DNA of 36,197 nucleotides from Desulfonatronaceae bacterium UBA663 (GTDB lineage Bacteria; Desulfobacterota; Desulfovibrionia; Desulfovibrionales; Desulfonatronaceae). This document shows, piece after piece, positions 8,544 through 26,399 of this stretch; positions within the stretch are counted from its first letter, which is position 1; every line of letters begins with the position of its first letter. Under the pieces are notes generated by a model, which was given only the letters and a program-made list of their open reading frames with translations, was not told the origin of the DNA and ran no database searches. The translations under genes were made by a program, and so were the position numbers. The stretch lies in NCBI GenBank assembly GCA_002299865.1, contig DBNV01000097.1:1456-37652 (forward strand), read 5' to 3'.

Positions 8544-8547
8544 AGGT

Positions 8548-10530: not shown

Positions 10531-11318
10531 GTTTTTCGATTGCAGTCGCCGGCAAGGGTGGTAGTGGAAAAACGTCGCTGGCAAGTCTAATCATTCGTTA
10601 CTTGAGAAAGAATGGTGTGGGACCGATCCTAGCGGTCGACGCCGACCCTAATGTCAATTTAGGAGAGAGTCTCGGAATTGAGGTGGAGCAGACGGTTGGT
10701 TCGGTGATCGCTGCTTTTGATGAGGAAAAGATGAATCTTTCTCCTGGGATAACCAAAGAGACTTACCTGGGATATCAATTGAGCACGGCGCTTGTCGAAC
10801 AGGAAGGGTTCGATCTTTTAGTGATGGGTCGGGGCGCGGGGCCGGGGTGCTATTGTTATCCCAATCATGTTTTGACGAACTTTATCAGTATCCTGGCCGA
10901 AAACTATGCTTATGTCGTGATCGATAATGAGGCCGGGATGGAGCATTTAAGCCGGAGAACCACACAGGATATTGATGTTCTGCTTGTGATCTCCGACCAT
11001 TCGGTACGGGGGGTCCGCACGGTGGCCCGGATCAGGGATCTGATCTTCGAACTTAAACTGGCGGTGAAAAGACAAGCGGCGGTCATTAATTTTGTTCCTG
11101 ACCGGTTGGACCCCTTCATCGTCGAGGAATTGGCCCGGCTGAGCATCGAACCGGTCGCGACCATCCCTTTGGATGAAGAGGTGCACCGGTATGATCTCCG
11201 GTTGAAGTCGCTGCTTGACCTGCCCGATACCACCGCAGCCGTTGGAGCAGTCCATGATTTAATGACTGAAATTTTATCAGGAAGGAGCAAAAATAAAAAT
11301 GTCGGCACGGATTATTAG
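10527..11318 (+). CDS. cooC: Second CooC/AcsF-family nickel-insertion ATPase (likely ACS maturation)
   Basis: IAVAGKGGSGKT, DADPNVNL, GPGCYCYPN, DNEAGMEHLSRRTT. GTGA overlap with the acsV stop. Confidence 0.85.
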   Translation: MSFSIAVAGKGGSGKTSLASLIIRYLRKNGVGPILAVDADPNVNLGESLGIEVEQTVGSVIAAFDEEKMNLSPGITKETYLGYQLSTALVEQEGFDLLVMGRGAGPGCYCYPNHVLTNFISILAENYAYVVIDNEAGMEHLSRRTTQDIDVLLVISDHSVRGVRTVARIRDLIFELKLAVKRQAAVINFVPDRLDPFIVEELARLSIEPVATIPLDEEVHRYDLRLKSLLDLPDTTAAVGAVHDLMTEILSGRSKNKNVGTDY

Positions 11319-12186
11319 TGGTATCGAGATCGCCAAGCAGATTCACCAAGAGCTGAAGCAGGAAATTGCCGCACTCAAGGAGCGGTACCGGCTCGTCCCG
11401 GGGTTGGCTACTGTTTTGGTGGGTGAAGACCCGGCCTCCCAGGTTTACGTCGGGCAAAAGGCGAAGACCTGCGCGGCCTTGGGTATTCACTCGGAAAGGC
11501 ATGACTTGCCGGCGGATGCTGACGAGGAGACTTTGCTGGCCCTGATCGACAAGTTGAATCACGATCCGGGAGTTCACGGCATTTTAGTGCAGTTGCCCTT
11601 GCCCGCCCACATTGACGAGCGCCGGGTACTTTATGCGCTTGACCCCCGCAAGGACGTTGACGGCTTTCACCCGATGAATCTGGGTAAGTTGATGATTGGT
11701 GAGCCTGATTATTTACCATGTACTCCTTACGCGGTGCAGCAATGTTTAATCCGGTCCGGGGTGGAAATTGAAGGGGCGGATGTAGTGGTGGTGGGTCGGA
11801 GTAATATCGTGGGCAAGCCGCTGGCCAACATGTTTTTCCAGAAACAAAAAGGGGCCAACGCCACGGTGACCATCTGCCATACCGGAACTCGGGACCTGGC
11901 CCGGCACACCAAGCGTGCCGATATACTAATTGCGGCCGTCGGCAAGCCCAGGGCCATCACCGCCGACATGGTCAAGAAAGGAGCGGTGGTGATTGATGTC
12001 GGCGTTAACCGCATCGGGAAAACCGAATCCGGTAAGGCCATTTTGGTCGGGGATGTTGATTTTGAGGCGGTCAAAGAGCAGGCGGGGGCGATCACTCCGG
12101 TCCCTGGCGGCATCGGCCCCATGACCATCACCATGTTGATGCTGAATACCTTGAAAGCGGCAAAAACAGCGTCCGGTATCGTTTAG
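11299..12186 (+). CDS. folD: Bifunctional methylene-THF dehydrogenase / methenyl-THF cyclohydrolase
   Basis: YVGQK, GILVQLPLP, KDVDGFHP, PCTP, GRSNIVGKP, DVGVNR, TPVPGGIGPMT. Confidence 0.95.
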   Translation: MSARIISGIEIAKQIHQELKQEIAALKERYRLVPGLATVLVGEDPASQVYVGQKAKTCAALGIHSERHDLPADADEETLLALIDKLNHDPGVHGILVQLPLPAHIDERRVLYALDPRKDVDGFHPMNLGKLMIGEPDYLPCTPYAVQQCLIRSGVEIEGADVVVVGRSNIVGKPLANMFFQKQKGANATVTICHTGTRDLARHTKRADILIAAVGKPRAITADMVKKGAVVIDVGVNRIGKTESGKAILVGDVDFEAVKEQAGAITPVPGGIGPMTITMLMLNTLKAAKTASGIV

Positions 12187-12571
12187 TCTGAAATGGTGGC
12201 TGCCAACGGTCGAAAATGTACTCCAAATGGCACCGGGGGCTGGTTGTTCACCTGGCGAAATGTGTTAATTGCAGTCAAATTGCAACATTTGGCCCCCGGA
12301 AGGCTTCAGTTCCCGGGCCGGGGTTTGTCCCCTGGACTGGTCCCATTCTTTTCAAGGTGTCTATTCCCTACACCAGAAGCCGGTTTTGACCATTGAAGGT
12401 TGGTTTCTTGGCAGCACGGGCTGTCCGTTGGCAAACTAATTCTAATCTGAACCAGTTAAGGATCAAGAAGTCGAGTGGTTGAGTGGTTGAAGCGAAACAA
12501 AGGCAAGGGGAGTTTTCGAGAATATGCCATTGGCGATGCAAGGCAAAGAGAGGACGAAAGGAGTGAAAAGC

Positions 12572-12790
12572 GTGTTAGAATATCAGGTTGAGCAAAAAAG
12601 TGCCCCCGGCAGGGAACAAGTGGCGGTATTGGGCGCAACCTTCGAGGAAGGCAAGCCCGAAGACGAGCTGGCCGGGAGCTGGCGACAGAAGTTGGGGAGC
12701 AGGGCGGAAAAGCTCAAATATTTGCAGACCGGTGAGCGGTATTGGTACGGAGAAGGGTATGGCAGCGAAAAGAGAGAGCCCCCGGCTTAG
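12572..12790 (+). CDS. Small uncharacterised protein (about 72 aa) within the WLP cluster
   Basis: GTG at 12572 lies 8 nt after AAGGAG. Co-oriented with the cluster, with a protein-like aromatic C-terminus (KYLQTGERYWYGEGYGSEKR). No domain recognised. Confidence 0.6.
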   Translation: MLEYQVEQKSAPGREQVAVLGATFEEGKPEDELAGSWRQKLGSRAEKLKYLQTGERYWYGEGYGSEKREPPA

Positions 12791-12859
12791 GAGTTGGGGG
12801 ATGAATAATGAGTGATGAAGTGGCGAGAAGAGAGAGCCCCCGGCTTGGGAGTTGGGGGA
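12765..12859 (+). repeat. Two 37-bp direct repeats (35/37 identical) separated by 21 bp
   Basis: GCGAAAAGAGAGAGCCCCCGGCTTAGGAGTTGGGGGA (12765-12801) and GCGAGAAGAGAGAGCCCCCGGCTTGGGAGTTGGGGGA (12823-12859). Confidence 0.9.
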
Positions 12860-12951
12860 ATTCAGGGAAAGTTTTTTGAGTTTGCAGTTTGGACGGTAAA
12901 GCTTTGCCGGGATCTGGGAGAAGAAGTTGAGCGTTAAGGAAGGTTTTAAAA

Positions 12952-13899
12952 ATGGCTTTTGAAATTCCGCAAACGAGATATAGTGGCAAAATTAAAGAAG
13001 TCCGGCTGGGTGAGGGAGATAAAAACATCGTCGTTGGTGGGGCGACGGTCTATCCTTTTTATCTTTTCGAGGGTGGGATGCCCAACCAGCCGCGGATAGC
13101 GATGGAGATCTATGATATGCCGCCTAAAGAGTGGCCGGAGGCCGCTTTGGCGCCCTTTGCCGGAGTGACCACCGATCCGGTGGCCTGGGCGCAGAAATGT
13201 ACTAATGATTACGGGGCCGAAATGATTTGTTTGCAACTGGTGAGTACCGACCCTAATGAGCTTGACCGAGGCGTCGAGGAAAGTGTGGCGGTGGTCAAGA
13301 GGGTGGCCGAGGCCCTTGATGGGCGGCCCCTGATTGTTTGGGGTTGTGGCAACGAAGAGAAGGATAGCGAGGTTTTGAGGGAAGTGTGTGCGGTCTGTGC
13401 AGGGAAGAACCTGCTTATCGGGCCGGTCGTGGTGGGGAATTATAAGAAAATCGGGGCGGCGGCCATTGGTTATCACCATACGATAATTGCATCGAGTCCG
13501 ATGGATGTCAACCTGGCCAAACAACTTAATATCCTGCTGGGTGGTCTGGGTGTTCCCGACGGGCGAATTATGATTGATCCCACGACTAGTAGTTTGGGTT
13601 ATGGCATCGAGTATTGTTACTCAACAATGGAGCGAATCCGAATGGCGGCCTTGACCCAGCAGGATGAGCGACTCCAGTTTCCCATTATTTGCAACTTGGG
13701 CAAAGAAGTGTGGAAAATCAAGGAAGTGAAAGCCGGAGCCACTCCTGAGTTTGGGGAGGCTAAGGAAAGGGGCGTGCTGATGGAGGCGATGTCGGCGATG
13801 CTGTTGCTTTTGGCTGGAGCCGACCTATTGATTATGCGGCATCCGGAGGCCATCGGGCTGGTTCGGGAAATGATTGCCGAACTGACAGTTACTCAATAA
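12952..13899 (+). CDS. acsD: Corrinoid iron-sulfur protein small (delta) subunit
   Basis: YPFYLFEGGMPNQPRIAMEIYD, SSPMDVNLAKQLNILL, IDPTTSSLGYGIEYCYSTMERIR, MRHPEA. Confidence 0.95.
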   Translation: MAFEIPQTRYSGKIKEVRLGEGDKNIVVGGATVYPFYLFEGGMPNQPRIAMEIYDMPPKEWPEAALAPFAGVTTDPVAWAQKCTNDYGAEMICLQLVSTDPNELDRGVEESVAVVKRVAEALDGRPLIVWGCGNEEKDSEVLREVCAVCAGKNLLIGPVVVGNYKKIGAAAIGYHHTIIASSPMDVNLAKQLNILLGGLGVPDGRIMIDPTTSSLGYGIEYCYSTMERIRMAALTQQDERLQFPIICNLGKEVWKIKEVKAGATPEFGEAKERGVLMEAMSAMLLLLAGADLLIMRHPEAIGLVREMIAELTVTQ

Positions 13900-13912
13900 G
13901 GGGGATCAAGAG

Positions 13913-14482
13913 ATGGTTGGGATGGCGGTGCAGGAGACCGGGTCGGTTTGCCGGTGTGCGGACAAGATTAGTGATAGTGCCGGTTCCGGACCGGGGGGGC
14001 AAGTAGTGGATGAAGTTTCCGGGATCGTTCGGGAAGTAATGACAAAATACCGGCACCACAAAGGCATGCTGGTGCACGCCTTGCAGGATGTCCAGCGAGT
14101 GTTGGGCTATCTGCCGGAGGATGCTTTGCGTATTGTCGCCGAGGAACTTGATTTCCCCTTTGCCCAGGTTTACGGGGTAGCTTCGTTTTACACCCAATTT
14201 TACTTTAGCCCCCGGGGGAAAAATATACTCCAGGTGTGTGTGGGGACAGCATGCCACATTCGTGGGGCGCCGGCCATTCTTGGTCGCTTTGAGCAGGAGC
14301 TCGGGATAAAGGCCGAAGAGACCACCGCCGATTTTGAATTTACCTTGGGGGCGGTCAGTTGTGTCGGTTGTTGCGGTTTGGCCCCGGTGGTGGTCGCCAA
14401 TGAGCGGGTGGTCAAGAAGAAGGACCACCACAAGATCATCACCCGTCTCAGAAAACAGGCGGAGGACTCTGCCGTCGGATAA
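13913..14482 (+). CDS. NuoE/HydC-like thioredoxin-fold 2Fe-2S subunit
   Basis: LQDVQRVLGYLP, VYGVASFYTQF, VCVGTACH...SCVGCCGLAP. Start position uncertain. Confidence 0.9.
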   Translation: MVGMAVQETGSVCRCADKISDSAGSGPGGQVVDEVSGIVREVMTKYRHHKGMLVHALQDVQRVLGYLPEDALRIVAEELDFPFAQVYGVASFYTQFYFSPRGKNILQVCVGTACHIRGAPAILGRFEQELGIKAEETTADFEFTLGAVSCVGCCGLAPVVVANERVVKKKDHHKIITRLRKQAEDSAVG

Positions 14483-14569
14483 CGGTGGTTGGTGGTCTGC
14501 CGGGGGCTTTTGTTCCTGGCATGCCGGCACCTGACCGCTGGTTGCTACTTTCAGAATAGGAGCGTCGTT

Positions 14570-16465
14570 GTGAATAAACTGCGGCATATAAATGACGTGC
14601 ACGTCCTCAGGGAGAGATTGCTTCTTGAGGAAAAAACAGCAAAGCAGCCCACGCTGAAGGTGTGTTGTGGAACCGGTTGTGTTGCTGCCGGCGGCCTGGA
14701 AACCGCCGCTGCCTTTGCGGCCGAAATAGAGAAGCAGGGGCGCGAGATCAAGGTGGTCAGGACCGGCTGCCTGGGATGGTGTGAAAAGGGGCCGCTGGTG
14801 ACGATTGAGCCGCAGCATCTTTTCTATCAAAGGGTTACAGCTTCTGATGTACCCCAGATAATGGATTTGACCATGGCGCGGGGAAGACCGCTGAACCGGT
14901 TCCTTTACGCCGAATCCGACACCGGGGAGTTTATTCGGTGGCGGGACGAAATACCTTTTTATCAGAAACAGACCAGTGTTCTTTTGCGTAATTGCGGGTG
15001 GATCAGTCCGACTGATATTTATGACGCCGTTAAAGTCGGCGGATATGAAGCCCTGGCCAAGGTGCTGGCCGGGATGACTCCGGAAGCGGTGATCGATACC
15101 ATCAAGCGTTCCGGGTTGCGTGGTCGCGGGGGAGCCGGATTTCCGACCGGGCTGAAGTGGGAATTATGCCGGAGGCAAGAGGGAACGGTGAAATACCTCA
15201 TCAGTAACGGGGATGAGGGCGACCCGGGTGCTTTCATGGACCGGAGTGTGATGGAGGGGGATCCCCACTCGGTGATCGAGGGGATGATTATTGCGGCCTA
15301 CGCCATCGGTGATGTCACCCAGGGGTTTGTCTATGTGCGGGCCGAATATCCGCTGGCGGTCACCAATCTGGAGTTGGCGCTGCGGCAAGCCGAGCAGTTG
15401 GGCTTGCTGGGAGAAAACATCCTTGGCACCGGCTTTAACTTTACCGTCGAGCTGAAAAAGGGGGCAGGGGCCTTTGTTTGTGGTGAAGCGACGGCGCTGA
15501 CGTGTTCCATCGAGGGCACAAGGGGTATGCCCCGCCAGACCCCGCCCTACCCGGTCGAGGCTGGTCTGTGGGATAAACCGACGGTGTTGAACAACGTGAA
15601 AACTTTCGCCGCCGTGCCGGCAATCATCAACCGGGGCGCTGACTGGTTTGCCGGTATCGGTACCGAGCGGTCCAAAGGGACCCAGGTATTAGCGCTCACC
15701 GGCAAAGTTAAAAACACCGGGCTGGTGGAGGTGCCAATGGGAACAACCCTCAGGGAGATCGTATTTGATGTCGGGGGCGGGGTGATGGACGACAAGCGGT
15801 TCAAGGCGGTCCAGATCGGCGGCCCTAGTGGGGGTTGCCTTCCTGAAAAACATCTTGATCTCCCGATTGATTTTGATTCCTTGTCGAGCGTCGGGGCCAT
15901 GATGGGCTCCGGTGGGCTGGTGGTGATGGATGAGGACGATTGCATGGTGGGAGTTGCCCGTTTCTTCCTCTCTTTTACGCAGAAGGAGTCTTGTGGGAAA
16001 TGTCCGCCTTGCCGGATCGGAACTTATCAGATGCTGAAGGTACTGGACAGAATTGTGGCCGGAGAAGGAAGGCCGGGGGATATCGAGCTTTTAGAGCGGC
16101 TGGGCGGCGAGATTAAGGCTACTGCCCTGTGTGGGTTGGGGCGGACTGCGCCCAATCCGATCCTGACCACTATCCGTTACTTTCGGGAGGAATACGAGGC
16201 CCACATTTATGGCAACCATTGTCCGGTCAAAGCGTGCCACGCCCTGGGAACTTACCGGATTGTTGACGAAGAATGTCTTCTTTGTGGCCTGTGTATGGAG
16301 GTTTGTGAGAAAAAGGCCGTGATCAGTGCCCGGCAAAGATACTATATCGACGAGGTCAAGTGCAATCGTTGCGGCATTTGTTTGCAGGCTTGTCCAGTGG
16401 AATGTATCCTTGTCGGTGAGTCAAACGGGATTGGCAAGGAGGGCGTTTATGAAGCCGGTCGGTGA
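14570..16465 (+). CDS. NuoF/HydB-like FMN and NAD(P)-binding subunit with N-terminal 2Fe-2S and C-terminal 2x4Fe-4S domains
   Basis: GTG at 14570 after AGGAG. Motifs CCGTGC...GCLGWC, SGLRGRGGAGFPTG, NGDEGDPGAFMDR, GAFVCGEATAL, GGPSGG, ESCGKCPPCRIG..LCGLG, HI...CP..AC, and two CxxCxxCxxxC motifs. Confidence 0.9.
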   Translation: MNKLRHINDVHVLRERLLLEEKTAKQPTLKVCCGTGCVAAGGLETAAAFAAEIEKQGREIKVVRTGCLGWCEKGPLVTIEPQHLFYQRVTASDVPQIMDLTMARGRPLNRFLYAESDTGEFIRWRDEIPFYQKQTSVLLRNCGWISPTDIYDAVKVGGYEALAKVLAGMTPEAVIDTIKRSGLRGRGGAGFPTGLKWELCRRQEGTVKYLISNGDEGDPGAFMDRSVMEGDPHSVIEGMIIAAYAIGDVTQGFVYVRAEYPLAVTNLELALRQAEQLGLLGENILGTGFNFTVELKKGAGAFVCGEATALTCSIEGTRGMPRQTPPYPVEAGLWDKPTVLNNVKTFAAVPAIINRGADWFAGIGTERSKGTQVLALTGKVKNTGLVEVPMGTTLREIVFDVGGGVMDDKRFKAVQIGGPSGGCLPEKHLDLPIDFDSLSSVGAMMGSGGLVVMDEDDCMVGVARFFLSFTQKESCGKCPPCRIGTYQMLKVLDRIVAGEGRPGDIELLERLGGEIKATALCGLGRTAPNPILTTIRYFREEYEAHIYGNHCPVKACHALGTYRIVDEECLLCGLCMEVCEKKAVISARQRYYIDEVKCNRCGICLQACPVECILVGESNGIGKEGVYEAGR

Positions 16466-16961
16466 GGTTTGTGCGGTGGTTAACACGCTGGAGTTTCTTG
16501 CCAAAGTCAAGTTCTGTGCTCGGTGTTGGTCATGTATGGTCGGGTCGGCGCAGGTCAGCGGGTTATTACGAAAACTCACCCGGGGGGAAGGAGTGCCGGA
16601 GGATTTTCAATTGCTGGGCCTGCTCTCTTTTGGGATGAAGGAGACGGCGCGCTGTAAAGGTGGTAAAGAGGCGGCCGGGGTGCTGGCCGATCTGCTCTCA
16701 TCCGAAGAATACGTGGCGCACGTGGAGAACAGACGGTGTCCCCAGCGGTCTTGCTCCGGGCTGACCACTTATCGGGTGGTTGCCGAGAGGTGTGCTATGT
16801 GTGGTTTGTGCAAACAAGTTTGTCCCGAGGGGGCGGTCTTAGGTGAGGAGTATCTGCCTTACCTTGCTGATAATGTACCCTACACCATCAGTGCTGAGAA
16901 GTGCACCAAGTGTGGCTTGTGCCTGCCGGTGTGTGCTGAAAACGCCATTGAGTTGGTCTAG
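16449..16961 (+). CDS. Stand-alone Fe-S protein resembling the C-terminal part of NuoF/HydB (4Fe-4S helical domain plus 2x4Fe-4S ferredoxin), about 170 aa
   Basis: ATG at 16449 after AAGGAGG. Motifs EVCAV, CARCWSC...RCKGG, AHVENRRCPQRSC, CAMCGLCKQVCP and CTKCGLCLPVC are colinear with the C-terminus of the preceding gene. Confidence 0.8.
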   Translation: MKPVGEVCAVVNTLEFLAKVKFCARCWSCMVGSAQVSGLLRKLTRGEGVPEDFQLLGLLSFGMKETARCKGGKEAAGVLADLLSSEEYVAHVENRRCPQRSCSGLTTYRVVAERCAMCGLCKQVCPEGAVLGEEYLPYLADNVPYTISAEKCTKCGLCLPVCAENAIELV

Positions 16962-16997
16962 AAGAGCTGATTTAACCAACGGAGAAGAGGAGAAGCA

Positions 16998-19643
16998 ATG
17001 AGTGAGTTGGTCAGGTTGCAGATTGACGGTCAGGAGGTAGCGGTTCCCAAAGGGGTGACCATCATTGAAGCCGCGGCCCGGATCCAAATCGACATTCCCC
17101 ATCTTTGCCATCTTAACGGTTTGGTGCCGAGTAGCGCCTGCCGCCTGTGTCTGGTTGAGTTGGAGGGGACTAAAGACCTGGTTGTCTCCTGTGCCAGAGG
17201 CGTGCGCGAGGGGATGGTGGTTTGGACCCGGACCGAACGGGTACTGGCGGCTAGGCGTTTTGTTTTGGAGTTGATCTGGTCGGCTCATCCCGGAGATTGT
17301 ACCACTTGTGAAAAGAGCGGTCGTTGCGAGTTGCAGAAGTATACCTATGAGGTGGGTATTGAGCGGAATAGGTTCCCCCTGCGCCGGGATGAACAGCCAA
17401 TAGATACCACCAATCCGCTTATTGAACGGAACCCCAGCTTGTGTATCCTCTGTGGAAGATGCGTCAGAATATGCCGGATGCGGAACGGTAATAATGTTTT
17501 TGATTTTGTCAGCCGGGGAATAACGACCAGGGTTACTACCGCGTTTGAAAAGCCGCTCCAAGAGTCGGGCTGTACTTTTTGCGGCAGTTGTGTCTCGGTC
17601 TGCCCGGTAGGTTCCCTGGTGGAAAGGCAACGTCGATTTCGGGGCCGGGAGTGGGAACTCAAGACCACCGAAACAGTGTGCCCTTATTGTGGTGGTGGTT
17701 GCAAGTTACTGCTCGATACCACCAAGGATCAGATTGTTAGAGCACGGACTGAGAAAAAAGACGACTACTTGTGCGTCCGGGGGAAATTCGGTTGGGACTA
17801 CGCCCTGAGCAAAGAAAGGCTTAAAACACCGCTGATCAAAAAAGAAGGCACGCTTGAAGAGTGCAGTTGGGATGAGGCGTTGTCATCTATTGCCAAGAGG
17901 CTGGCGAAAATAAAGGAGACTCGTGGTCCTGAGGCCCTGGGAGGGTTGGTTTCGGCTAATTATCCCAGCGAAACCCTTTATCTCTTTGGCAAGTTTGTTC
18001 GGGCCGGCTTGGGGACTAATAATCTGGACAGTTCGGTGCGGCTTTTGAGCTGGCCCACCTTATCCGGTTTTATCCAGGCTTTTGGCCGGATGGATGTGGT
18101 TGCTACGTTGTCCGAGATCGAAGCGGCCGACACCTTGCTGGTCTTGGATTCAGAGGTTGCCGTCAAAAATCCCATGGTCGGGGTCAAGGTCAGGAAGGCT
18201 TTGAAAACGCCGAAAAAAGGAGCAGAAGGAGCAAATCTTATTACTATTGATTCCAGAAAAACTACGGTTGCCGGGCTTTCCCACCTGCATCTGCAACCGC
18301 GGCCCGGCACTGCTACAGTACTGCTGGATGGCATGATCAAGGTGATCCTTAGTGAAGGGCTATATGACCAGGAATTTGTCGCTGCTAATTGCAGCAACTT
18401 CCAAGAGTTTTCAGCGCGCTTTCTCGAAATGGAGCTGGATGTGGAGGCCATTACGGGGGTTGCCGAAGAAGCGGTGCTGGCTGCGGGGAGACTTTACGCC
18501 GGGCAAGGCCAAAAGGCGGTCATTATTTTCTCTCCGGAAACGAGTGACCGGCACATGGTGGCCCGGATTATCAACCTGCTGCTGCTGACTGGTCGAGTGA
18601 ACGGGGGTGTTTTTCCCAGCCTGCTGCACAGCAATCTATGGGGCGCCGCCGAGGTGGGGGTGGTGTCTGAGTTTTATCCCGGCTACCGGCCGGTCGAGGC
18701 GGCGACGGCCCGAAAGGAACTTGAAAACTTGTGGGGCGTTTCCCTGCCGAGCGAACCGGGCCTTTCGGCGATTGAAATGATTCAGGCGGCTGCCGAATCG
18801 ATATTCGGAATGTATATCCTCGGTGAGAATCCGGTGGCTTCATTCCCGGATAAGGCTAGTATGGTCCGGGGACTTGCCGCCCTCGATTTTTTGGTGGTTC
18901 AGGATATTTTTCTGACCGAGACCGCTCAATTGGCCGATGTTGTTTTACCCGGTGTGAGTTTTGCCGAAAGCTCAGGCACATTTACCAATGCCGAGGGCCG
19001 GGTTCAAGAGCTGAACCGGGTGTTGCCGTCGCAGACCAAGCCGGACTGGGAGATCATTGCTGAAATCTCTACGCGGATGGGTTATCCGCTGTCCTATCAC
19101 TCCGAGCGGGAGATTGCCGCCGAACTCAAGACCCTGGTTTCTGAGTTTTCCGGACCCCGGAACTCAGCATTCAGATTAGTGCTGACCGAAGCGGAAGAAA
19201 TAAGTGCAGAGCCGGACCGCGAGTATCCCTACCGGTTGATGATCGGTGCCACCTTGTTTGGGTTCGGTGATGGCTCGTGGACGAGGCGTTCCGAGATTTC
19301 CCGGTTAGAAACTCCTTATATCGGGATGAGTCCGCAAGATGTCCAGTCTTTGGGAGTGGTTGCCGGCACCCGGGTCTTAGTCTCGTCACGGCGGGGCCGG
19401 ATTACTACCACCATCAAAGTGGATGAATCCTTGCCGGCCGGCCTAGTTTTCATGCCGGCCCACCACCCGGAGGGCAACAGTTTAACCAGCGCCAGCCTTG
19501 ACCCGGTGACCAAAAGCCCCAGGTTTGAGCTGGCGGCAGCGAGCATTGACCGTCTACAGGAGTCAGAACCCGAAAGTCAGTGTGCTGGGGACAGATCACT
19601 GCTAAATCTTAACCAGACATCGGGGATAGCTAAATGGAACTAG
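16998..19643 (+). CDS. NuoG/HydA-N-terminal Fe-S module fused to an FDH-like molybdopterin fold that lacks the catalytic residues
   Basis: 2Fe-2S (LCH..ACRLC..SC), HxxxCxxCxxxxxC, two 4Fe-4S (CILCGRCVRIC, CTFCGSCVSVCP), and CPYCGGGC..LC. Active-site segment reads NNLDSSVRLLSW (no Cys/Sec-His), and SLLHSNLWG replaces RGQNNVQG. Confidence 0.85.
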   Translation: MSELVRLQIDGQEVAVPKGVTIIEAAARIQIDIPHLCHLNGLVPSSACRLCLVELEGTKDLVVSCARGVREGMVVWTRTERVLAARRFVLELIWSAHPGDCTTCEKSGRCELQKYTYEVGIERNRFPLRRDEQPIDTTNPLIERNPSLCILCGRCVRICRMRNGNNVFDFVSRGITTRVTTAFEKPLQESGCTFCGSCVSVCPVGSLVERQRRFRGREWELKTTETVCPYCGGGCKLLLDTTKDQIVRARTEKKDDYLCVRGKFGWDYALSKERLKTPLIKKEGTLEECSWDEALSSIAKRLAKIKETRGPEALGGLVSANYPSETLYLFGKFVRAGLGTNNLDSSVRLLSWPTLSGFIQAFGRMDVVATLSEIEAADTLLVLDSEVAVKNPMVGVKVRKALKTPKKGAEGANLITIDSRKTTVAGLSHLHLQPRPGTATVLLDGMIKVILSEGLYDQEFVAANCSNFQEFSARFLEMELDVEAITGVAEEAVLAAGRLYAGQGQKAVIIFSPETSDRHMVARIINLLLLTGRVNGGVFPSLLHSNLWGAAEVGVVSEFYPGYRPVEAATARKELENLWGVSLPSEPGLSAIEMIQAAAESIFGMYILGENPVASFPDKASMVRGLAALDFLVVQDIFLTETAQLADVVLPGVSFAESSGTFTNAEGRVQELNRVLPSQTKPDWEIIAEISTRMGYPLSYHSEREIAAELKTLVSEFSGPRNSAFRLVLTEAEEISAEPDREYPYRLMIGATLFGFGDGSWTRRSEISRLETPYIGMSPQDVQSLGVVAGTRVLVSSRRGRITTTIKVDESLPAGLVFMPAHHPEGNSLTSASLDPVTKSPRFELAAASIDRLQESEPESQCAGDRSLLNLNQTSGIAKWN

Positions 19644-21514
19644 TTAAAACTAATAGCGCGGTTACGATCTTTGACCGGGTCAAGCAAAAGAAGCCTTGTC
19701 CGTTTGGTGCTGATGGTCGATGTTGCAAAACGTGTTCTCTTGGTCCGTGTCGGGTTAGCGGCACGGGTGATGTTGGGGTGTGTGGTGCGTCGGCCGAAGT
19801 CATTGCCGCCCGGAATTTTTGTCGCATGGTTGCCGCCGGCACGGCCGCCCATTCCGACCACGCCCGCGAGGTGGCTCTGCTTTTTCGGGACGTGGCCCGG
19901 GGCGAGGTTCCGGGCTTTGAGATCAAGGATGAGCAGAAGTTGTTGCAACTGGCCTTGGATTTCGGGGTTGAAATCGGGAGCCGGCATCTCCAGGACATCG
20001 CGATCGGGGTTGGAGAGCGGGCGCTGGCCGAGTTCGGCAAGCAAGAAGGGGAACTGGCATTTGTCAAGCGGGCGCCGCTGAAACGGCAGGAATTGTGGCG
20101 CAAGCTGGGGATCGTCCCGCGCGGCATAGACCGGGAAGTGGTGGAGATGCTGCACCGGACCAGCGTTGGCGTGGATCAGGACTATCGGAGCTTGATGCGC
20201 CAGGGGATGCGCACCGCCTTAGCCGATGGCTGGGGCAGTTCGATGATCGCCACCGACCTACAGGATGTTTTGTTTGGTACGCCGGCCCCGGTCAGAGGAA
20301 AGGTGAACTTGGGGGTGCTCCGGGAGGACGAAGTCAACATCATTCTTCATGGGCATGACCCTTTACTCCCCGAAGTAATTGTCCAAGCGGCTCAGAACGA
20401 GGAGTTGCTGGCCCTGGCTCGGGTGAAAGGGGCCAAAGGCATTAATCTCGCCGGGATCTGCTGCACGGCGAATGAACTGGTAATGCGGCACGGCATACCC
20501 ATCGCCGGCGCCTATTTGCAGCAGGAGTTGGCGGTCACTACCGGGGCGGTCGAGGCGATCGTGGTCGATGTCCAGTGTATTATGCCTTCGCTGGTCCAGG
20601 TGGCTGGTTGTTATCATACCGAGGTAATCACCACTTCGGAAAGGGCCAAACTAACTGGGGCCGTCCACCTGGAGTTTAATCACCACAACGCCCTGGAAGT
20701 GGCTAAGAAGATCGTAAGGCGGGCCGTTGAAAATTATGCCAACCGCGGCGCCGTTGACATTCCTCAGGATGAGATGGATATGGTGGCCGGCTTCAGCCGT
20801 GACACCATCAATTATTTGCTGGGCGGTCTTCACCGGGCCTCTTTTCGGCCCCTGAACGCCAATATCATCGACGGTCGGATTTTCGGAACCACCGGGATTG
20901 TCGGTTGTAACAATCCCCGGGTGAATGCGGGTTATGTGCATGAGACTTTGGTTAGGGAACTCATTGCCAATAATGTGCTGGTGGTGACCACGGGTTGCGG
21001 CGCTATCAATGCCGCCCGGGCCGGGTTGCTGCGCCCTGAGGCGGCGGCCGAGGCCGGCTCCGGGTTGCGAGAGGTCTGCGAAGCCATTGGAATCCCGCCC
21101 GTGCTCCATATGGGATCGTGCGTAGACACCAGTCGCATCCTGTTGCTGATCAGCGAGCAGGTGAAAGAGGGCGGCTTGGGGGACGATGTTTTTCAACGAC
21201 CGTCTACTGCTTGTGCCCCGGAGTGGATGAGCGAGAAAGCCATTGCTATTGGTCAGTACGCCGTTGCTTCCGGGGTGAGGACGATCTTCGGCGCCAGTTT
21301 TCCCACCACCGGCAGTGAGATTTTCTCTGATTTCTTGTTCAACGAAATTGAAGATCTTACCAAAACCAAGTGGGTTTTTGAGCCCGATCCGCTCGAAATG
21401 GCGCAGATAATTCTTACCCATCTCGGCAACAAAAGGAAAGCGCTGGGCATTGATAAGACCCGGAAGCGGATATTTTACGACATGGCCATGCGACGAGCTT
21501 TGGATGCCTTTTGA
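19634..21514 (+). CDS. cooS: Ni,Fe carbon monoxide dehydrogenase catalytic subunit (AcsA/CooS)
   Basis: D/B-cluster PCPFGADGRCCKTCSLGPC..VCG, AHSDH, C-cluster ligands HGHDP, ICCT, VQC, GCNN, TGC and GSCVD, and the SEKA lysine. All expected ligands are present. Confidence 0.95.
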   Translation: MELVKTNSAVTIFDRVKQKKPCPFGADGRCCKTCSLGPCRVSGTGDVGVCGASAEVIAARNFCRMVAAGTAAHSDHAREVALLFRDVARGEVPGFEIKDEQKLLQLALDFGVEIGSRHLQDIAIGVGERALAEFGKQEGELAFVKRAPLKRQELWRKLGIVPRGIDREVVEMLHRTSVGVDQDYRSLMRQGMRTALADGWGSSMIATDLQDVLFGTPAPVRGKVNLGVLREDEVNIILHGHDPLLPEVIVQAAQNEELLALARVKGAKGINLAGICCTANELVMRHGIPIAGAYLQQELAVTTGAVEAIVVDVQCIMPSLVQVAGCYHTEVITTSERAKLTGAVHLEFNHHNALEVAKKIVRRAVENYANRGAVDIPQDEMDMVAGFSRDTINYLLGGLHRASFRPLNANIIDGRIFGTTGIVGCNNPRVNAGYVHETLVRELIANNVLVVTTGCGAINAARAGLLRPEAAAEAGSGLREVCEAIGIPPVLHMGSCVDTSRILLLISEQVKEGGLGDDVFQRPSTACAPEWMSEKAIAIGQYAVASGVRTIFGASFPTTGSEIFSDFLFNEIEDLTKTKWVFEPDPLEMAQIILTHLGNKRKALGIDKTRKRIFYDMAMRRALDAF

Positions 21515-21525
21515 ACATTACGCTG

Positions 21526-21645
21526 TTAACACTACAGCGCAAGTAGGGGCGACGCATGCGTCGCCCCTACTGGGTGACCGGAGATGATGCCGCGGTGTAG
21601 CAGGTCGGGTTTTTCAGCAAAATCTAAATTGCACTGTAGTGTTAA
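21526..21645. mobile_element. 120-bp MITE-like element with 17-bp inverted ends, carrying a REP-like palindrome
   Basis: TTAACACTACAGCGCAA (21526-21542) and TTGCACTGTAGTGTTAA (21629-21645) are complementary at 16/17 positions. Confidence 0.6.
21543..21570. repeat. Perfect 28-bp palindrome with GTAG ends (REP-like)
   Basis: GTAGGGGCGACGCATGCGTCGCCCCTAC is its own reverse complement. A 5' GTAG tetranucleotide is the hallmark of RAYT-associated REPs. Confidence 0.75.
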
Positions 21646-21684
21646 AATTTATTTAACCAACCAAGTGGGGAGGGTTTTTGCAAG

Positions 21685-23889
21685 ATGTCCAAAATAATTG
21701 CCTCGGCCGCGATCAGAGGGGCGCGTAAAATTGTGGACCGCGCCGAAAAAAAGTGGCAGCAGGCACTGGATCGATGGGGAGCGAACGAGCCGGTGGGCTT
21801 TCCCAATACAGCTTATTATTTGCCGATCATCTACGGTATATTGGGCCTCAAGGTGGAGAAACTGGCCGACATGGAGCAGGTATTGCATAAATGTAAATTG
21901 TTACTACCACCGCCGGTGAAAGCGACCTGCCATTTACCCTACTTGGCACCGGCACTTGATGCCGGGATGGCCACTTTTTTCGCCGAAGAGATTATCGAGG
22001 CCATTAAATATTTAGAACAGCCTGATAGTTATACCAAGCAGGAGGATGTTACCGATAGTAACATTTGGCTGGGCGCCGCTGATGATGTCATCTTAAGAAA
22101 GCGCGGGGTGGAGTTTGTTGACGGTACCGCCCCCGGCTTTGCCGCCATCCTCGGAGCGGCGCCGACCAAAGAAATCGCCGTGAAAATCGCCCAGGAACTC
22201 CAGCAGAAGAACCTCTACGTTTTCATGTGTGCCGAGCATGATGGAAAACGGTTCTCCGAGCAGTTGTTGGCGGCTGTGGTGCAGATCGGGTGGCCGGTCC
22301 GCCTGGTTTCTTTTGGTCCGGAGGTGAGTGCGGTCGTTTTCGCCATTGGTTTTGCCACCAGGGTCGCCCTTTCCTTCGGCGGCATTGAGCCCGGCGATTA
22401 CCGAAAAATTTTGATTTATAACAAGGATCGGGTCTTTTCCTTTGTCTTGCCCTTGGGCTATGTTACCGATGAATGGTACGCCAATGCCCTGGGCTGTGTT
22501 AACTGGGGTTTCCCGATCATTGCCGATACTCCGATACCGGAGATCTTGCCCATTGGGATTTGCACTAATGAGCACGTGGTGTCGAATGTTCCCCATGATA
22601 AAATAGTGGCCAAGGCGGTAGAGGTACGCGGACTGAAGGTTACCGTGACCGAAGTGCCGGTGCCGGTGGCCTACGGCCCGGCCTTTGAGGGAGAACGGGT
22701 GCGGAAGGAAGATCTCTACCTGGAATGTGGCGGCGGCCGAACACCGATGGTGGAGTTGGTGATCACCAGGCCGATGAATGCGATCGAAGACGGGAAGATT
22801 GAAGTGCTTGGTCCCGAGATAACCGATGTTTCTGCCGGTGCCAAGTTGCCCTTGGCAATCGTGGTCGAGGTCGCCGGGAGAACGATGCAGGAGGACTATG
22901 AACCGATTCTGGAACGGCAGGTGCACCATTTTATTAACTACGCCCAGGGATTGATGCATGTCGGGCAGCGGGACATTGCCTGGGTGCGTATTTCCAAGGC
23001 GGCGGTGGACAAGGGTTTCAAGTTCCACCACCTTGGCGCGCTGCTGCATGCCAAACTGCATCAGGACTTCGGCCGGATATTTGACAAGGTCCAAGTGAAA
23101 ATCTTTACCAAGGAAAATGACGTGAGAGCGTTGGCGGATCAGGCTAGAATGGCGTACAGGGAACGTGACGCTCGAATCGAAGGTATGACCGACGAAACCA
23201 CCGAGACCTATTACTCCTGCACCTTATGTCAGTCCTTTGCCCCCAGTCACGTTTGCATCGTCAGTCCGGAGCGGAGCGGGCTTTGTGGTTCCTACAACTG
23301 GATGGACTGTAAAGCGGCTTACGAGATCAATCCAACCGGACCCAACCAACCGGTGGACAAGGGGGAATGTCTTAATGCCAAGTACGGGCAGTGGCAGGGG
23401 GTGAACGAGTTTGTGTTCCAAGCTTCCCGGCAAAAAATCGAACGCTATAATTTTTATACCATCATCAATGATCCGATGACCACTTGCGGCTGTTGTGAGT
23501 GCATTGCGGCCGTTCTTCCCCTGTGTAACGGGGTGATGACGGTAAACCGGGAGTATGCCGAAATGACTCCTTGCGGGATGAAATTTACTACGCTGGCCGG
23601 CACCATCGGTGGTGGAATCACCACCCCGGGATTTATTGGGCACAGTAAATTCAACATTTGCCAGAAAAAATTTCTTGCCGGTGACGGCGGCCTGAAACGG
23701 GTGGTCTGGATGCCTAAAATGTTAAAGGAGATGATTGCCGGCCGACTTCAAGCCCGGGCCAAGGAGATCGGCGTGCCTGGCCTACTGGAGATGATTGCCG
23801 ACGAAACGGTGGGGGTCACCGAGGAGGAGATTCTACCCTTCTTGGAAGAGCGGGGGCACCCGGCGTTGACTATGGAGTCGATCATGTGA
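21685..23889 (+). CDS. acsB: Acetyl-CoA synthase, bacterial long form with N-terminal domain
   Basis: FPNTAYYLP, AFEGERVRK, A-cluster ligands YSCTLCQSFAPSHVC..GLCG and PMTTCGCCEC, GDGGLKRVVWMPK. Confidence 0.97.
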   Translation: MSKIIASAAIRGARKIVDRAEKKWQQALDRWGANEPVGFPNTAYYLPIIYGILGLKVEKLADMEQVLHKCKLLLPPPVKATCHLPYLAPALDAGMATFFAEEIIEAIKYLEQPDSYTKQEDVTDSNIWLGAADDVILRKRGVEFVDGTAPGFAAILGAAPTKEIAVKIAQELQQKNLYVFMCAEHDGKRFSEQLLAAVVQIGWPVRLVSFGPEVSAVVFAIGFATRVALSFGGIEPGDYRKILIYNKDRVFSFVLPLGYVTDEWYANALGCVNWGFPIIADTPIPEILPIGICTNEHVVSNVPHDKIVAKAVEVRGLKVTVTEVPVPVAYGPAFEGERVRKEDLYLECGGGRTPMVELVITRPMNAIEDGKIEVLGPEITDVSAGAKLPLAIVVEVAGRTMQEDYEPILERQVHHFINYAQGLMHVGQRDIAWVRISKAAVDKGFKFHHLGALLHAKLHQDFGRIFDKVQVKIFTKENDVRALADQARMAYRERDARIEGMTDETTETYYSCTLCQSFAPSHVCIVSPERSGLCGSYNWMDCKAAYEINPTGPNQPVDKGECLNAKYGQWQGVNEFVFQASRQKIERYNFYTIINDPMTTCGCCECIAAVLPLCNGVMTVNREYAEMTPCGMKFTTLAGTIGGGITTPGFIGHSKFNICQKKFLAGDGGLKRVVWMPKMLKEMIAGRLQARAKEIGVPGLLEMIADETVGVTEEEILPFLEERGHPALTMESIM

Positions 23890-24014
23890 TGAATGATGGG
23901 TGATGGGTGGGAGGTTGTTTCGACCAAAAGACCCCATGTCGCCCTGACGGGCGACGCCATCAAAGGGCGCCGATAATGCGGGGAAGCCGATAATGTAAGG
24001 AAAGGAGTCTGACA

Positions 24015-25361
24015 ATGCCGCTTACTGGGATCGAAATCTTCAAGATGTTGCCCAAAACAAACTGCGGCGAGTGCGGGGTGCCCACCTGTCTTGCCTTTGC
24101 AATGAAGCTGGCTACCGGCAAGGCCGAACTGGCCGCTTGCCCTTATGTCTCCGAGGAGGCGAAAGCCAAACTGGATACGGCCTCCGCGCCGCCGGTCAGG
24201 CTGATTACCGTTGGTATTGGCGACCAAGCCTTAAAGGTTGGCGGCGAAACGGTAATGTTTCGTCATGAAAAAAGGTTTGAGAATCCTCCCGGCCTGGCCC
24301 TCCTTATCAGCGATACCATGGAGTCGGCCGAGATCGAGGCGCGGTTGGAGAGATTTAAGCAGTTTCAGTATGAACGGGTTGGGCTTATTCTACGTCCCGA
24401 ATTGATCGCGGCAAGGGCCGATTCCGGGCGGGCGGACAGATACGCGTCTCTGGTTGATCAGGTCAAGCAAAACAACCCGGGCGGCATCATCCTGATGAGC
24501 GACGATCCGGAATTGCTGGCGGCTGGTCTGGAGGTTTGTGCCGATCGGAAACCGTTGCTTTATGCCGCTACTGCCGAGAATTTGGATCGTCTGGTCGATT
24601 TGGCCAAAGCGAACTCGTGTCCGGTGGTGGCAAAGGCCTCTGGCTTGGAGAAACTTGCCGAGCTGACCAACAAATTGACGGCGGCCGGAGTTAAAGATCT
24701 CGTGCTCGATTCCGAGCCCGGAACCATGCGTCAAGCGTTTGAGGACCAGGTGATCATCAGAAGCGCCGCCTTGAACAAAAAGTTTCGCCCGTTGGGTTTT
24801 CCGACCATTGCTTTTCCCGGCAAGCTGAGCGCTGATCCGCTGAAAGAAGCGGTGATTGCCGCTGCTTTGGTGGCGAAGTATGGCGGGATCATCGTTCTTT
24901 CCGATTTTCAGGGGCACAGCCTGTTCCCGTTGCTCCTGGCCCGGATGAATATTTATACCGATCCCCAGCGGCCGCTGGCCACTACCGAGGGCATTTATAA
25001 AATCGGTGGCCCAGATGAAAAGGCGCCGGTGTTGCTCACCTGTAACTTTTCCCTGGCTTACTTTATTGTTTCCGGGGAAGTGGAAGCCAGCAAGGTTCCT
25101 TGCTATCTGCTGATCAAGGACACCGCGGGGCTTTCGGTGCTGACGGCCTGGGCGTCGGGGAAATTCGGCGCTGATACCATTGGTCCCTTTGTTAAGCGGT
25201 GCGGTATTAGCGAGTTGATTGCCCATCGTAAGTTGATAATCCCGGGTTATCTCGCTGCCGAACGCGGTGAGTTGGAAGAAGAGTTGTCCGACTGGGAGAT
25301 TCTGGTTGGTCCCCGGGAAGCGGCCCATCTTCCGGCCTATCTTAGAACTTTGATATCGTGA
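24015..25361 (+). CDS. acsC: Corrinoid iron-sulfur protein large (gamma) subunit
   Basis: LPKTNCGECGVPTCLAFA..CPY 4Fe-4S, GGETVMFRHEK, NIYTDPQRP, GLSVLTAW, VGPREA. RBS AAGGAG. Confidence 0.97.
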   Translation: MPLTGIEIFKMLPKTNCGECGVPTCLAFAMKLATGKAELAACPYVSEEAKAKLDTASAPPVRLITVGIGDQALKVGGETVMFRHEKRFENPPGLALLISDTMESAEIEARLERFKQFQYERVGLILRPELIAARADSGRADRYASLVDQVKQNNPGGIILMSDDPELLAAGLEVCADRKPLLYAATAENLDRLVDLAKANSCPVVAKASGLEKLAELTNKLTAAGVKDLVLDSEPGTMRQAFEDQVIIRSAALNKKFRPLGFPTIAFPGKLSADPLKEAVIAAALVAKYGGIIVLSDFQGHSLFPLLLARMNIYTDPQRPLATTEGIYKIGGPDEKAPVLLTCNFSLAYFIVSGEVEASKVPCYLLIKDTAGLSVLTAWASGKFGADTIGPFVKRCGISELIAHRKLIIPGYLAAERGELEEELSDWEILVGPREAAHLPAYLRTLIS

Positions 25362-25374
25362 GAGGGGGAAAATA

Positions 25375-26253
25375 ATGCTACTCATCGGAGAGAACATTAA
25401 CGTTATGTCGAAGACCATTGGTCCGGCATTGCGGGAAAGGAACCCCGGGCCGATTCAGGAGATGGCCAAAGCCGGGACCGAGGCGGGCATGGATTACCTT
25501 GATCTTAATATCGGTCCGGCCCGTAAAGGCGGGGAGGAAGTGATGGCTTGGCTGGTCAAGACGGTGCAGGAGGTCACTGATCTGCCGTTATGCCTGGATA
25601 CGACCAATCTGGCGGCGATGGAGGCCGGGTTGAAGGAATGCAAAGGCAAGGCACTGATTAATTCGGTCTCCCTGCAGCCCGAAAGGTTGGAGCGGGGGTT
25701 GCCCCTGGTCCAAAAGTACGGCGCGGCCATGATCGGACTTTTGTGGGGCGCTGAAGGAATGCCACGCGATGCCGCCGAAAGGGGGATGCTGGCTGTTGAC
25801 CTGATCTATCAGGCCAATCAGGCGGGTATTCCTAATGAGGATATCTGGATTGACCCGGTGCTGGCCCCGGTGAGCGTGGAGATTAACCAGGTGCAAGCCT
25901 GTTTTGAGTTCATGGGCATGCTGGGTGAGATTGCTCCCGGGTGTAAGTCCACCCTGGGCTTGTCTAATGTTTCCAATGGCGCTCCGACCCACCTTCGACC
26001 TTATCTTAATCGGACCTGCCTGATAATGCTGATGCGGTACGGGCTTTATTCGGCGATTGCTGATGCCTATGATCCGGAGTTGGTGCGGATCGCCAGGGGT
26101 GAAATGCCGGAGATTGTTGACCTGGTATACCGGATAATGGATGGCGAGCAACCCGAGCTGGCTGCTCTGGATCAAAAGGAAGTGGAATATGTGAAAACGG
26201 TGCGGGTGCTTACCGGCAGGTCACTTTATTCCGACTCCTGGCTGGATGTTTGA
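25375..26253 (+). CDS. acsE: Methyl-THF:corrinoid Fe-S protein methyltransferase (pterin-binding TIM barrel)
   Basis: LIGENINVM, LDLNIGPA, LCLDTTN, LINSVS, IDP, GLSNVSNG. Immediately downstream of acsC. Confidence 0.9.
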   Translation: MLLIGENINVMSKTIGPALRERNPGPIQEMAKAGTEAGMDYLDLNIGPARKGGEEVMAWLVKTVQEVTDLPLCLDTTNLAAMEAGLKECKGKALINSVSLQPERLERGLPLVQKYGAAMIGLLWGAEGMPRDAAERGMLAVDLIYQANQAGIPNEDIWIDPVLAPVSVEINQVQACFEFMGMLGEIAPGCKSTLGLSNVSNGAPTHLRPYLNRTCLIMLMRYGLYSAIADAYDPELVRIARGEMPEIVDLVYRIMDGEQPELAALDQKEVEYVKTVRVLTGRSLYSDSWLDV

Positions 26254-26399
26254 CCGGTCTTTTCCCACGGCCGTCTATTCAGCCATTAACCTGAATCCGG
26301 CAAGCGGACAGGTTTAAGCACCAAGACACACAAAACCAACAAGTTAGTGGTCCTTTGTATCCTTCGTGAATAAATTTCTAAACAAGGAGGCTGATTTTC

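Follow-up and report, generated by a model that had tools for sequence, protein, structure and literature searches.

A Bfu-type module with a free-standing BfuB arm beside cooS, a likely electron partner of CO dehydrogenase/acetyl-CoA synthase

Introduction

Calculations of the energy yield of the Wood-Ljungdahl pathway take ferredoxin as the only electron carrier for CO dehydrogenase (CODH). In the window analyzed here (the whole 36,197-nucleotide stretch from contig DBNV01000097.1 of Desulfonatronaceae bacterium UBA663), acsD and cooS are separated by four redox genes, designated E, F, F' and G. The locus raises the question of which cofactors these genes encode, and whether they serve CODH, another enzyme of the pathway, or neither.

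Results

Organization of the locus

All features described here are on the forward strand. The gene acsD (12952..13899; NF003376) is followed after a 13-nt spacer by E (13913..14482), F (14570..16465), F' (16449..16961) and G (16998..19643). The cooS/acsA gene (19634..21514), which passes TIGR01702, starts within G with a 10-nt overlap, and acsB, encoding acetyl-CoA synthase (ACS; 21685..23889, 734 aa; NF040764), is followed by acsC, acsE and fhs. The preliminary description had reported NuoE-, NuoF- and NuoG-like genes plus an extra Fe-S gene at this place, beginning 13 bp after acsD and overlapping the cooS start by 10 bp; the ORFs and family models agreed on every point. Likewise, a scan of 28 window ORFs gave no H-cluster, NiFe large subunit or membrane Nuo gene, as that description had stated, and the window ORFs contained no CooF-type polyferredoxin.

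The start of F was most likely the GTG at 14570, with AGGAG upstream; a relative of ~90% identity has 25 other letters in place of 14465-14558, which bears on this assignment. F' starts at the ATG at 16449 and overlaps F by 17 nt. The exact 10-bp overlap between G and cooS is local to the window, because most relatives have a G tail ~25 residues shorter and a longer CooS N-terminus; G and cooS again abut or overlap in loci L018-L020. A G-CooS fusion or frameshift was ruled out, as the genes were separate in the three-frame view and in five relatives, and an apparent F-F' fusion in L053/G083 was an artefact of an N-gap. A Logan contig was identical over 11000-30500, although it may be the source of the same DNA. 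Promoter and terminator scans stayed at shuffle level (15 vs 11.6 and 28 vs 24.9, respectively). A search of sequencing runs listed no RNA run holding the locus, a result with no bearing on its expression.

The module is part of a Wood-Ljungdahl island running from fdhF to fhs (5607..28076), which showed atypical composition (GC3 0.55-0.68 vs 0.75-0.81 in five flanking genes), and acsB was present in 0 of 8 congeners. Its fdhF (5607..7652; TIGR01591) retains the CARICH ligand motif and has no N-terminal NuoG-type Fe-S domain. Simple transfer of the entire island from another phylum was not borne out, as the window AcsB groups with AcsB of the same order (SH-aLRT 99).

The flavin core formed by E and F

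E is a BfuC/NuoE-like subunit (PF01257 and HoxE/NuoE models) with one [2Fe-2S] site (C109, C114, C150, C154). F, of 631 aa, is a BfuB with an N-terminal 2Fe-2S domain, FMN, SLBB and NADH_4Fe-4S domains and two Fer4 domains (PF01512, PF10531, PF10589, Fer4). Its best PDB match was 7t2r_B, the HydB of a NiFe-Bfu enzyme (E 1e-233), followed by 8a6t_B. The motifs quoted in the preliminary description were all found (GDEGDPGAFM at residue 214, GGPSG at 417, DDC at 456 and HI..CP..AC at 545), and the assigned sites comprised the B5 2Fe-2S cluster, an FMN/NAD(P) site with AFM, F302, GEAT and GGPSG, and B1, B2 and B3/B4.

AFM, the Phe and GGPSG are signatures of bifurcating BfuB, and a Glu is tied to NADH selectivity (PMC12018979). 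Among 46 module F proteins, AFM was present in 45 (one F being N-terminally truncated) and GGPSG in all 46. The NADH-selecting Glu was absent in 45/46, the window F included, so F is probably of the NADP(H) type. The HydB of Thermoanaerobacter kivui, which carries a GES motif, is NADP-dependent (PMC8578170). GES or GEA also occurred in 37 of 49 control BfuBs, indicating that it is not specific to the module clade. In the Bfu family, B2 is defined by three Cys, a conserved His and a fifth ligand, Cys or Thr. F has the Cys3His set (C458, H545, C551, C556), with Val (V496) at the fifth position, which was Thr in 38, Val in 7 and Ala in 1 of the 46 relatives. In Tsi NfnABC, zinc at B2-like sites is compatible with bifurcation.

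Of the features of Bfu family members, the BfuB domain set together with BfuC, the AFM/Phe/GGPSG signatures, the B5 [2Fe-2S] site and a BfuA with A1 and A2 were present. The Bfu-type core proposed earlier was confirmed by cofactor motifs and PDB matches. Judged from these residues, the module would be bifurcating, and it is predicted to couple the reduction of NAD(P)+ to that of ferredoxin.

G and the additional arm F'

G, a NuoG/FdhF-like BfuA of 881 aa, matched Fdh alpha subunits and 7t2r_A in the PDB. When 18 G proteins were aligned with two FdhF, the A1-A5 Cys/His motifs were observed in 18/18 G, whereas G lacks TGR, the arginine of RG(Q/H)N and the Cys/His that ligate Mo. The Mo/W-ligating Cys/Sec, His and Arg by which a BfuA is classed as Type 1 Fdh-Bfu were absent from all 18 and present in both FdhF controls. 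G is thus a molybdenum-dead FdhF fold that retains the A1-A5 wire. The G proteins of Nitrospirota have no domain IV.

F', of 170 aa, contains NADH_4Fe-4S and two Fer4 domains and no flavin domain. Its ligands for B1, B2, B3 and B4 were invariant at 15 of 16 positions in 64/64 rows, and the remaining one, C155, was kept in 62/64. The structure model (pLDDT 88) matched 8a6t_B with a Foldseek TMq of 0.79, the highest query-normalised TM-score among the matches listed. F' is therefore a free copy of the BfuB C-terminal, ferredoxin-side arm with four conserved sites. These assignments of F' and G, like the probable NADP(H) type of F, go beyond the preliminary description. A complex prediction with two CooS(1-410) chains and F' scored 0.00 and was counted neither for nor against contact.

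CooS and the host genome

The D-cluster (C22, C30), B-cluster (C31, C34, C39, C50) and C-cluster ligand sets of CooS were intact, with ligand roles that we take to be those of solved CODHs. This CooS is the sole copy in the genome, the other PF03063 match being Hcp. The only NuoH-family gene of the host lies in a compact, Ech-like cluster with a NiFe-type large subunit. The host also has another Fe-S/NAD-binding cluster ~4 kb from fdhD (contig C64) and a second E-F-G set (contig C83).

Linkage of the module to cooS

The four-gene module keeps next to cooS in several bacterial phyla. Among 63 F' loci, which are mostly kin and include the near-duplicates L021 and L078, 41 had cooS within or adjacent to the module. 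Three gene orders were seen (33 cooS-EFF'G, 7 EFF'G-cooS as in the window, and 1 F'-cooS-E-F). This answers the survey of gene order that the preliminary description had proposed. Neither cooS nor acs genes were found in any of 56 control BfuB loci classed as lacking F', a set including L053, which does carry F'. The module also accompanied cooS copies without adjacent acsB (L042, L072, L165).

Co-occurrence was analyzed within a single class of Nitrospirota, in 101 genomes, 82 of which had F'. Of the 101, 79 carried F' together with cooS and 16 carried neither; the other 6 were discordant, and in 4 of these the contig ends at the locus. Of the 16 genomes lacking both, 12 still keep acsB, probably after one loss; the 10 cooS-less AcsBs placed in the AcsB tree formed one clade, so that the co-loss may be single. 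The linkage was not strict. The module was apart from cooS in G025 and lay 2.7 kb upstream of acsE, rather than beside cooS, in G039. Furthermore, G028 and G074 kept cooS-acsB without F', and F' was found in 2 of 61 Bipolaricaulota genomes compared with 23 for cooS, indicating that a CODH of this type can do without the module.

Phylogeny, another check proposed earlier, placed the module BfuBs in one clade (26 rows vs 21 others, SH-aLRT 99), and the window CooS fell together with CooS from other phyla that are linked to the module (97). All three trees came from quick runs in which SH-aLRT was the only support measure, and covered selected sequences (26 BfuB of the module with 21 others, 34 AcsB, 40 CooS). 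In the CooS tree, L174, L180, L181 and L189 were marked 'other' though E or F follows their cooS, and its group counts are left out here.

Downstream of G, no conserved catalytic redox partner was observed in 39 loci, except cooS (5) and nfnSL (2). In G028 and G074 the nfnS-nfnL pair directly followed cooS, and in L075 and L091 it followed G. Because L075 and L091 carry both systems, retention of NfnSL after module loss fits G028 and G074 equally well as replacement, and the latter was not adopted. An ORF best-matching the window FdhF was found in 0 of 63 F' loci within a 10-kb flank, where the window's own spacing is 8.8 kb and many loci are shorter. Thus, of the two couplings in the preliminary description, the one to CODH had good support from gene order, co-loss and trees, and the one to the FdhF of the cluster gained none.

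Discussion

Proposed function and alternatives

Taken together, we slightly favor the view that E-F-F'-G is a Bfu-type module and likely the dedicated electron partner of CODH/ACS, through which the CO2/CO step is predicted to be coupled jointly to NADP(H) and ferredoxin; the evidence for this partnership is genomic throughout. The module is predicted to dock physically on CooS, which would join the wire at its mid-potential end, so that electrons may pass between the D-cluster, F', G (A3/A4) and A2-A1-B1-FMN. F' would take the role of CooF in the predicted CodhABCSF. In CODH, the D-cluster is where ferredoxin docks (10.1101/2024.08.05.606187), and B3/B4 of F' could occupy that site. In the reductive direction, likely in this H2-using sulfate reducer, NADPH and reduced ferredoxin would supply the four electrons needed by two CO2 at about -440 mV, taking the potentials from Table 1 of PMC9304861 with CO2 reduction at -520 mV. 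Such a scheme would work only because ACS consumes CO. With an ACS step of -38 kJ/mol, the effective couple would be about -320 mV. The ferredoxin demand of the carbonyl branch would then be halved, and in the reverse direction acetyl-CoA cleavage would reduce ferredoxin.

Alternatively, CODH may sit at the low-potential end. F' would then be a private, tethered ferredoxin leading from B3/B4 of F to the D-cluster, and mid-potential electrons would come from another enzyme, such as FdhF or a hydrogenase, docked on the dead FdhF domain of G; such a layout would resemble the direct channel of methanogen Fdh-Hdr-Fmd complexes. In its favor, it is precisely the ferredoxin-side arm of BfuB that is copied in F', A5 and the Mo scaffold, a possible docking surface, were kept in G, and the window FdhF has no N-terminal Fe-S domain of its own; a ferredoxin-level donor also suits CO2 reduction at -520 mV. 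However, the surroundings of the module hold no conserved third catalytic subunit and domain IV is lost from Nitrospirota G, and we consider this arrangement rather unlikely. Doubtful as well is a module that serves CODH without bifurcating or without docking, either as an NADPH:CODH diaphorase or as a ferredoxin:NADP+ reductase acting through free ferredoxin and co-regulated with cooS. The soluble NADPH/ferredoxin enzyme NfnSL at the positions described above, the unlinked module of G025 and the Val at the fifth B2 position of the window are consistent with it. Nevertheless, non-bifurcating homologues lack B2-B5 (PMC9304861), whereas F keeps these ligands together with AFM, the Phe and GGPSG, and a plain reductase would have no need of a conserved A1-A5 wire that ends blind.

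The HylABC-FdhF2 complex is a characterised precedent (PMC5861303) for a module partnered with FdhF, here alone or for both CO2-reducing steps, and the island fdhF is intact and without its own Fe-S input domain. Since FdhF does not follow the module in the 63 F' loci surveyed, many of them short, and the host has the C64 cluster near fdhD and the C83 E-F-G set, we regard this partnership as very unlikely. The automatic names NuoE, NuoF and NuoG would suit a detached NADH-input module of membrane complex I, and detached nuoEFG near Wood-Ljungdahl genes were so interpreted in two reports (PMC8671834, PMC6305446). The sole NuoH-family gene in the Ech-like cluster, the lack of membrane nuo genes in the window and the association of the module with cooS across genomes leave hardly any credence for it.

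Relation to known systems

A Codh-Bfu was predicted in 2022 (Schut, PMC9304861) and CodhABCSF in 2025 (Feng, PMC12318220), and the class was unpurified as of the 2025 paper. The preliminary description could not exclude such a bioinformatic account; one exists, with a different composition. As here, a BfuABC core is encoded with cooS and CO/CO2 is the proposed third reaction. The published form, however, comprises 4 sequences from Firmicutes only, has a Type 2 BfuA without A3/A5 and a CooF linker, and is read as CO oxidation or detoxification; the present one has no CooF in the window, an F' arm, an 881-aa A1-A5 G and a likely NADP(H) site, and lies mostly in acs operons. The CooF, shorter A subunit and restriction to Firmicutes of the published form indicate that the F'-bearing form is new, and the E-F-F'-G-cooS form was not described in the literature searched, subscription journals being outside that search. 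The BfuB of the published form belongs to clade 49, as does 7t2r_B.

The NiFe-Bfu HydABCSL of Acetomicrobium mobile (7T2R) provides the closest relative of F, an A subunit matching the Fe-S part of G and a similar Type 3 layout, in which an external catalytic unit feeds A3; it differs in its NAD-type GEE, Cys as the fifth B2 ligand, HydSL as partner and the lack of F'. Similarly, HydABC of T. kivui (8A6T), the second-best match to F, performs NADP-dependent bifurcation with a GES motif, but its HydA has an H-cluster and it has no link to CODH. HylABC-FdhF2 of Gottschalkia (Clostridium) acidurici also combines an A1-A5 subunit lacking a catalytic site with a separate catalytic subunit, which is a formate dehydrogenase there, and uses NAD; a linkage to FdhF is unconserved here. 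The CODH/ACS-ferredoxin complex of Clostridium autoethanogenum (9G03) has a related CooS with the D-cluster as electron port, although free ferredoxin binds transiently and a flavin module is absent.

If electrons of NADPH and ferredoxin are confurcated by the module into CODH/ACS, the carbonyl branch would need only half as much ferredoxin, and reduced ferredoxin could be a direct product of acetate oxidation. ATP estimates would then change for most Thermodesulfovibrionia-type Nitrospirota, of which 82 of 101 sampled genomes have F', and the locus would offer the first testable member of the predicted, unpurified Codh-Bfu class. Tentatively, and with somewhat less than even confidence, we propose a physical connection between a CODH/ACS that is widespread in the subsurface and a module that bifurcates between NADP(H) and ferredoxin. 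The duplicated flavin-free BfuB arm, a fourth type of subunit, would provide the connection. Mid-potential electrons, drawn by the synthesis of acetyl-CoA, would then reduce CO2 to enzyme-bound CO and halve the ferredoxin requirement, with a CBS pair as a possible energy-sensing switch. F', with its 170 residues, provides a marker for tracking the system. The CBS pair was observed in the core of about half of the relatives.

Conservation of the module beside cooS

The Wood-Ljungdahl cluster in the window was ordered fdhF, cooC, acsV, cooC, folD, acsD, E, F, F′, G, cooS, acsB, acsC, acsE, and fhs. The 13-nt acsD-to-E spacing and the 10-nt G/cooS overlap agreed with the preliminary description, and the most likely starts of F and F′ were 14570 and 16449. 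At 19560-19700, the G tail was ~25 residues longer and the CooS N-terminus shorter than in most relatives. A perfect 28-nt palindrome lay between cooS and acsB (21543-21570); counting both strands, the genome had 23 occurrences of its 9-nt arm, often in similar hairpins, a REP-like pattern. Two hairpin-capable 37-nt copies (95% identical, 58 nt apart) were located upstream of acsD at 12765-12859, the first overlapping an 88-codon ORF (12524-12790) with no family match.

Next, 133 loci were retrieved with the F′ alignment, among which 63 carried a stand-alone F′. As observed, cooS stood at the module edge in 40 of these 63, either before E (33 loci, one with cooS 2.8 kb away) or after G (7 loci), and was inside the module in locus L028; none of the remaining 22 had a 1.5-kb flank on both sides. 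The taxa in the record titles were Nitrospirota, Bipolaricaulota, Actinomycetota, and Syntrophomonadaceae, with Chloroflexota given for one protein match. Neither cooS nor acs genes were found in the 56 BfuB loci assigned to the F′-less group, of which 30 were at least 10 kb long, and no other conserved catalytic partner was detected 3′ of G in 39 loci. A complex coupled to CODH and/or FDH had been suggested; the CODH link gained genomic support and the FDH link did not, with no ORF in the 63 F′ loci having FdhF as its best match. In L028, L165, L180, and L181, E and/or F came after a cooS of a second Nitrospirota paralog clade that had no adjoining acsB; F′ lay upstream in two of these loci (L028 and L165), the latter with a fragmented G.

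The same linkage was counted in 101 genomes from the class of G021, which we take to be Thermodesulfovibrionia. F′, cooS, and acsB were present in 82, 82, and 95 genomes, respectively; 79 had both F′ and cooS, 16 neither, 3 cooS only, and 3 F′ only. Of the 81 genomes with both F′ and acsB, 65 had them 3.8-10.8 kb apart on one contig and 16 had them on different contigs. Contig-end breaks were seen in G031, G083, G091, and G115; the module was apart from cooS in G025 and upstream of acsE in G039. G028 and G074 carried nfnS-nfnL immediately 3′ of cooS, and L075 and L091 contained both module and nfnSL. In twelve genomes, acsB was retained but both cooS and F′ were missing; ten of these were included in the tree and formed one clade, so this absence may reflect a single loss. 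Among 61 Bipolaricaulota genomes, cooS was present in 23 and F′ in two, both beside cooS. Therefore, F′ is nearly always accompanied by cooS, but cooS occurs without F′. Loci L149-L152, L155-L160, L187, and L188, from the 12 Nitrospirota genomes that kept acsB alone, with a long-branch AcsB and mostly acsE-D-C-B order, had no cooS match and are read as ACS without CODH. At L018:11910-15696, acsB was split by an insertion that carried a LAGLIDADG domain and gave a weak intein match.

Sequence features of the subunits

G retained A1-A5. The Mo-ligating Cys/His, the RG(Q/H)N arginine, and TGR were missing from all 18 aligned copies and kept by both FdhF controls, indicating that the module was rightly described as having no catalytic site. 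F′ showed 36% identity to F residues 467-608, and 15 of its 16 metal ligands were kept in 64/64 alignment rows; its predicted model (pLDDT 88) overlaid the C-terminal arm of HydB with TMq up to 0.79. The conserved Cys, His, and Lys set was present in the window CooS (35 aligned copies), with cluster roles that we assume.

In the PDB comparison, F was closest to solved bifurcating B subunits (7t2r_B, E 1e-233; next 8a6t_B and 7q4v_B), with NuoF at ~1e-112. It carried the B1, B3, B4, and B5 cysteines, a Cys3His B2 site, and the AFM, Phe, and GGPSG signatures. These signatures are listed in the available text of PMC12018979, where Glu286 is tied to NADH selectivity. The equivalent position read GEAT in the window F, GES or GEA in 45/46 module F proteins and 37/49 control BfuBs, and GES in T. 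kivui HydB, which is NADP-dependent according to the accessible part of PMC8578170. From these motifs, we infer that F would use NADP(H). A long C-terminal extension was found on 22 of 46 module BfuBs (e.g., at L029:7587-9926, at L034:7496-9898, and at further module loci from Nitrospirota); both extended copies scanned had a CBS pair, which may confer adenylate regulation on the predicted bifurcating core. L034 (5145-9898) and L035 had tandem BfuB genes ahead of F′.

Proposed mechanism and published systems

The genomic support points to a predicted function of E-F-F′-G in serving CODH. In the reading adopted here, CooS would sit at the mid-potential end as the third-substrate unit, passing electrons through F′ and the A wire of G to the FMN/B1/C1 site, which would exchange with NADP(H) and ferredoxin; the wiring order, nucleotide, and bifurcation itself are inferred. 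Taking -380 mV for NADPH and -500 mV for ferredoxin (PMC9304861, Table 1), merged electrons would lie near -440 mV. This would be insufficient for free CO2/CO (-520 mV) but ample when ACS consumes CO, since an ACS step of -38 kJ/mol would give an effective couple of ~-320 mV. Such a pull would offer a reason for CODH needing bifurcation, which was called unclear in the available text of PMC9304861.

One main rival places CODH at the ferredoxin end; the other is a non-bifurcating module. Ferredoxin at the CODH D-cluster is described in the accessible portion of 10.1101/2024.08.05.606187. The sequence hallmarks of Bfu were found in the present system, with Val in place of the expected Cys or Thr ligand at the fifth B2 position of the window F.

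Codh-Bfu was named from four Type 2 sequences, Firmicutes only, in the part of PMC9304861 available, and CodhABCSF, with CooF, is yet to be purified according to that of PMC12318220. As so described, Codh-Bfu has CooF and a Type 2 A, both missing from the present system, which would work like it with a different architecture. E-F-F′-G-cooS is a real, conserved feature that differs from the form predicted in print. The sections available of PMC6305446 and PMC8671834 noted nuoEF(G) near Wood-Ljungdahl genes without reading them as a CODH module, and those of PMC5736913, PMC12827605, PMC7325909, PMC5861303, and PMC6203783 held no description of this system.

History of the module and its host

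A quick tree (26 module and 21 other rows) placed module BfuBs in one clade (SH-aLRT 99). The window CooS clustered (97) with CooS from module-linked loci of Actinomycetota and Bipolaricaulota, whereas AcsB clustered with two same-order genomes (99), whose acs regions, as fetched, showed no module. Because CooS groups across phyla and AcsB within the order, transfer of E-F-F′-G-cooS as a unit fits this limited sampling. GC3 was 0.55-0.68 in the island and 0.75-0.81 in flanking genes. acsB was found in none of eight congeners, and scoring of up to 17 candidates in each of 200 other genomes from the phylum gave no close F′; the flanking AlaS showed 72-74% identity to three congeners.

The host genome (91% complete) encoded dsrA, a group-1-type NiFe hydrogenase, an Ech-like cluster, and MetF, with no RnfC above the cut-off. 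In its second E-F-G set (L163:6602-12903, contig C83), F was of the GEET type, the 834-aa G terminated in a DHODB Fe-S motif, and an NfnL/GltD-like gene came next. This arrangement may combine a Bfu core with an Nfn-like unit; G-like frames of similar size were present in 8/8 congeners. On contig C64 (L192:1022-8995), a cluster encoding an Fe-S protein and a HydG/AsrB-like NAD-binding subunit lay ~4 kb from fdhD and might be another partner for FdhF.
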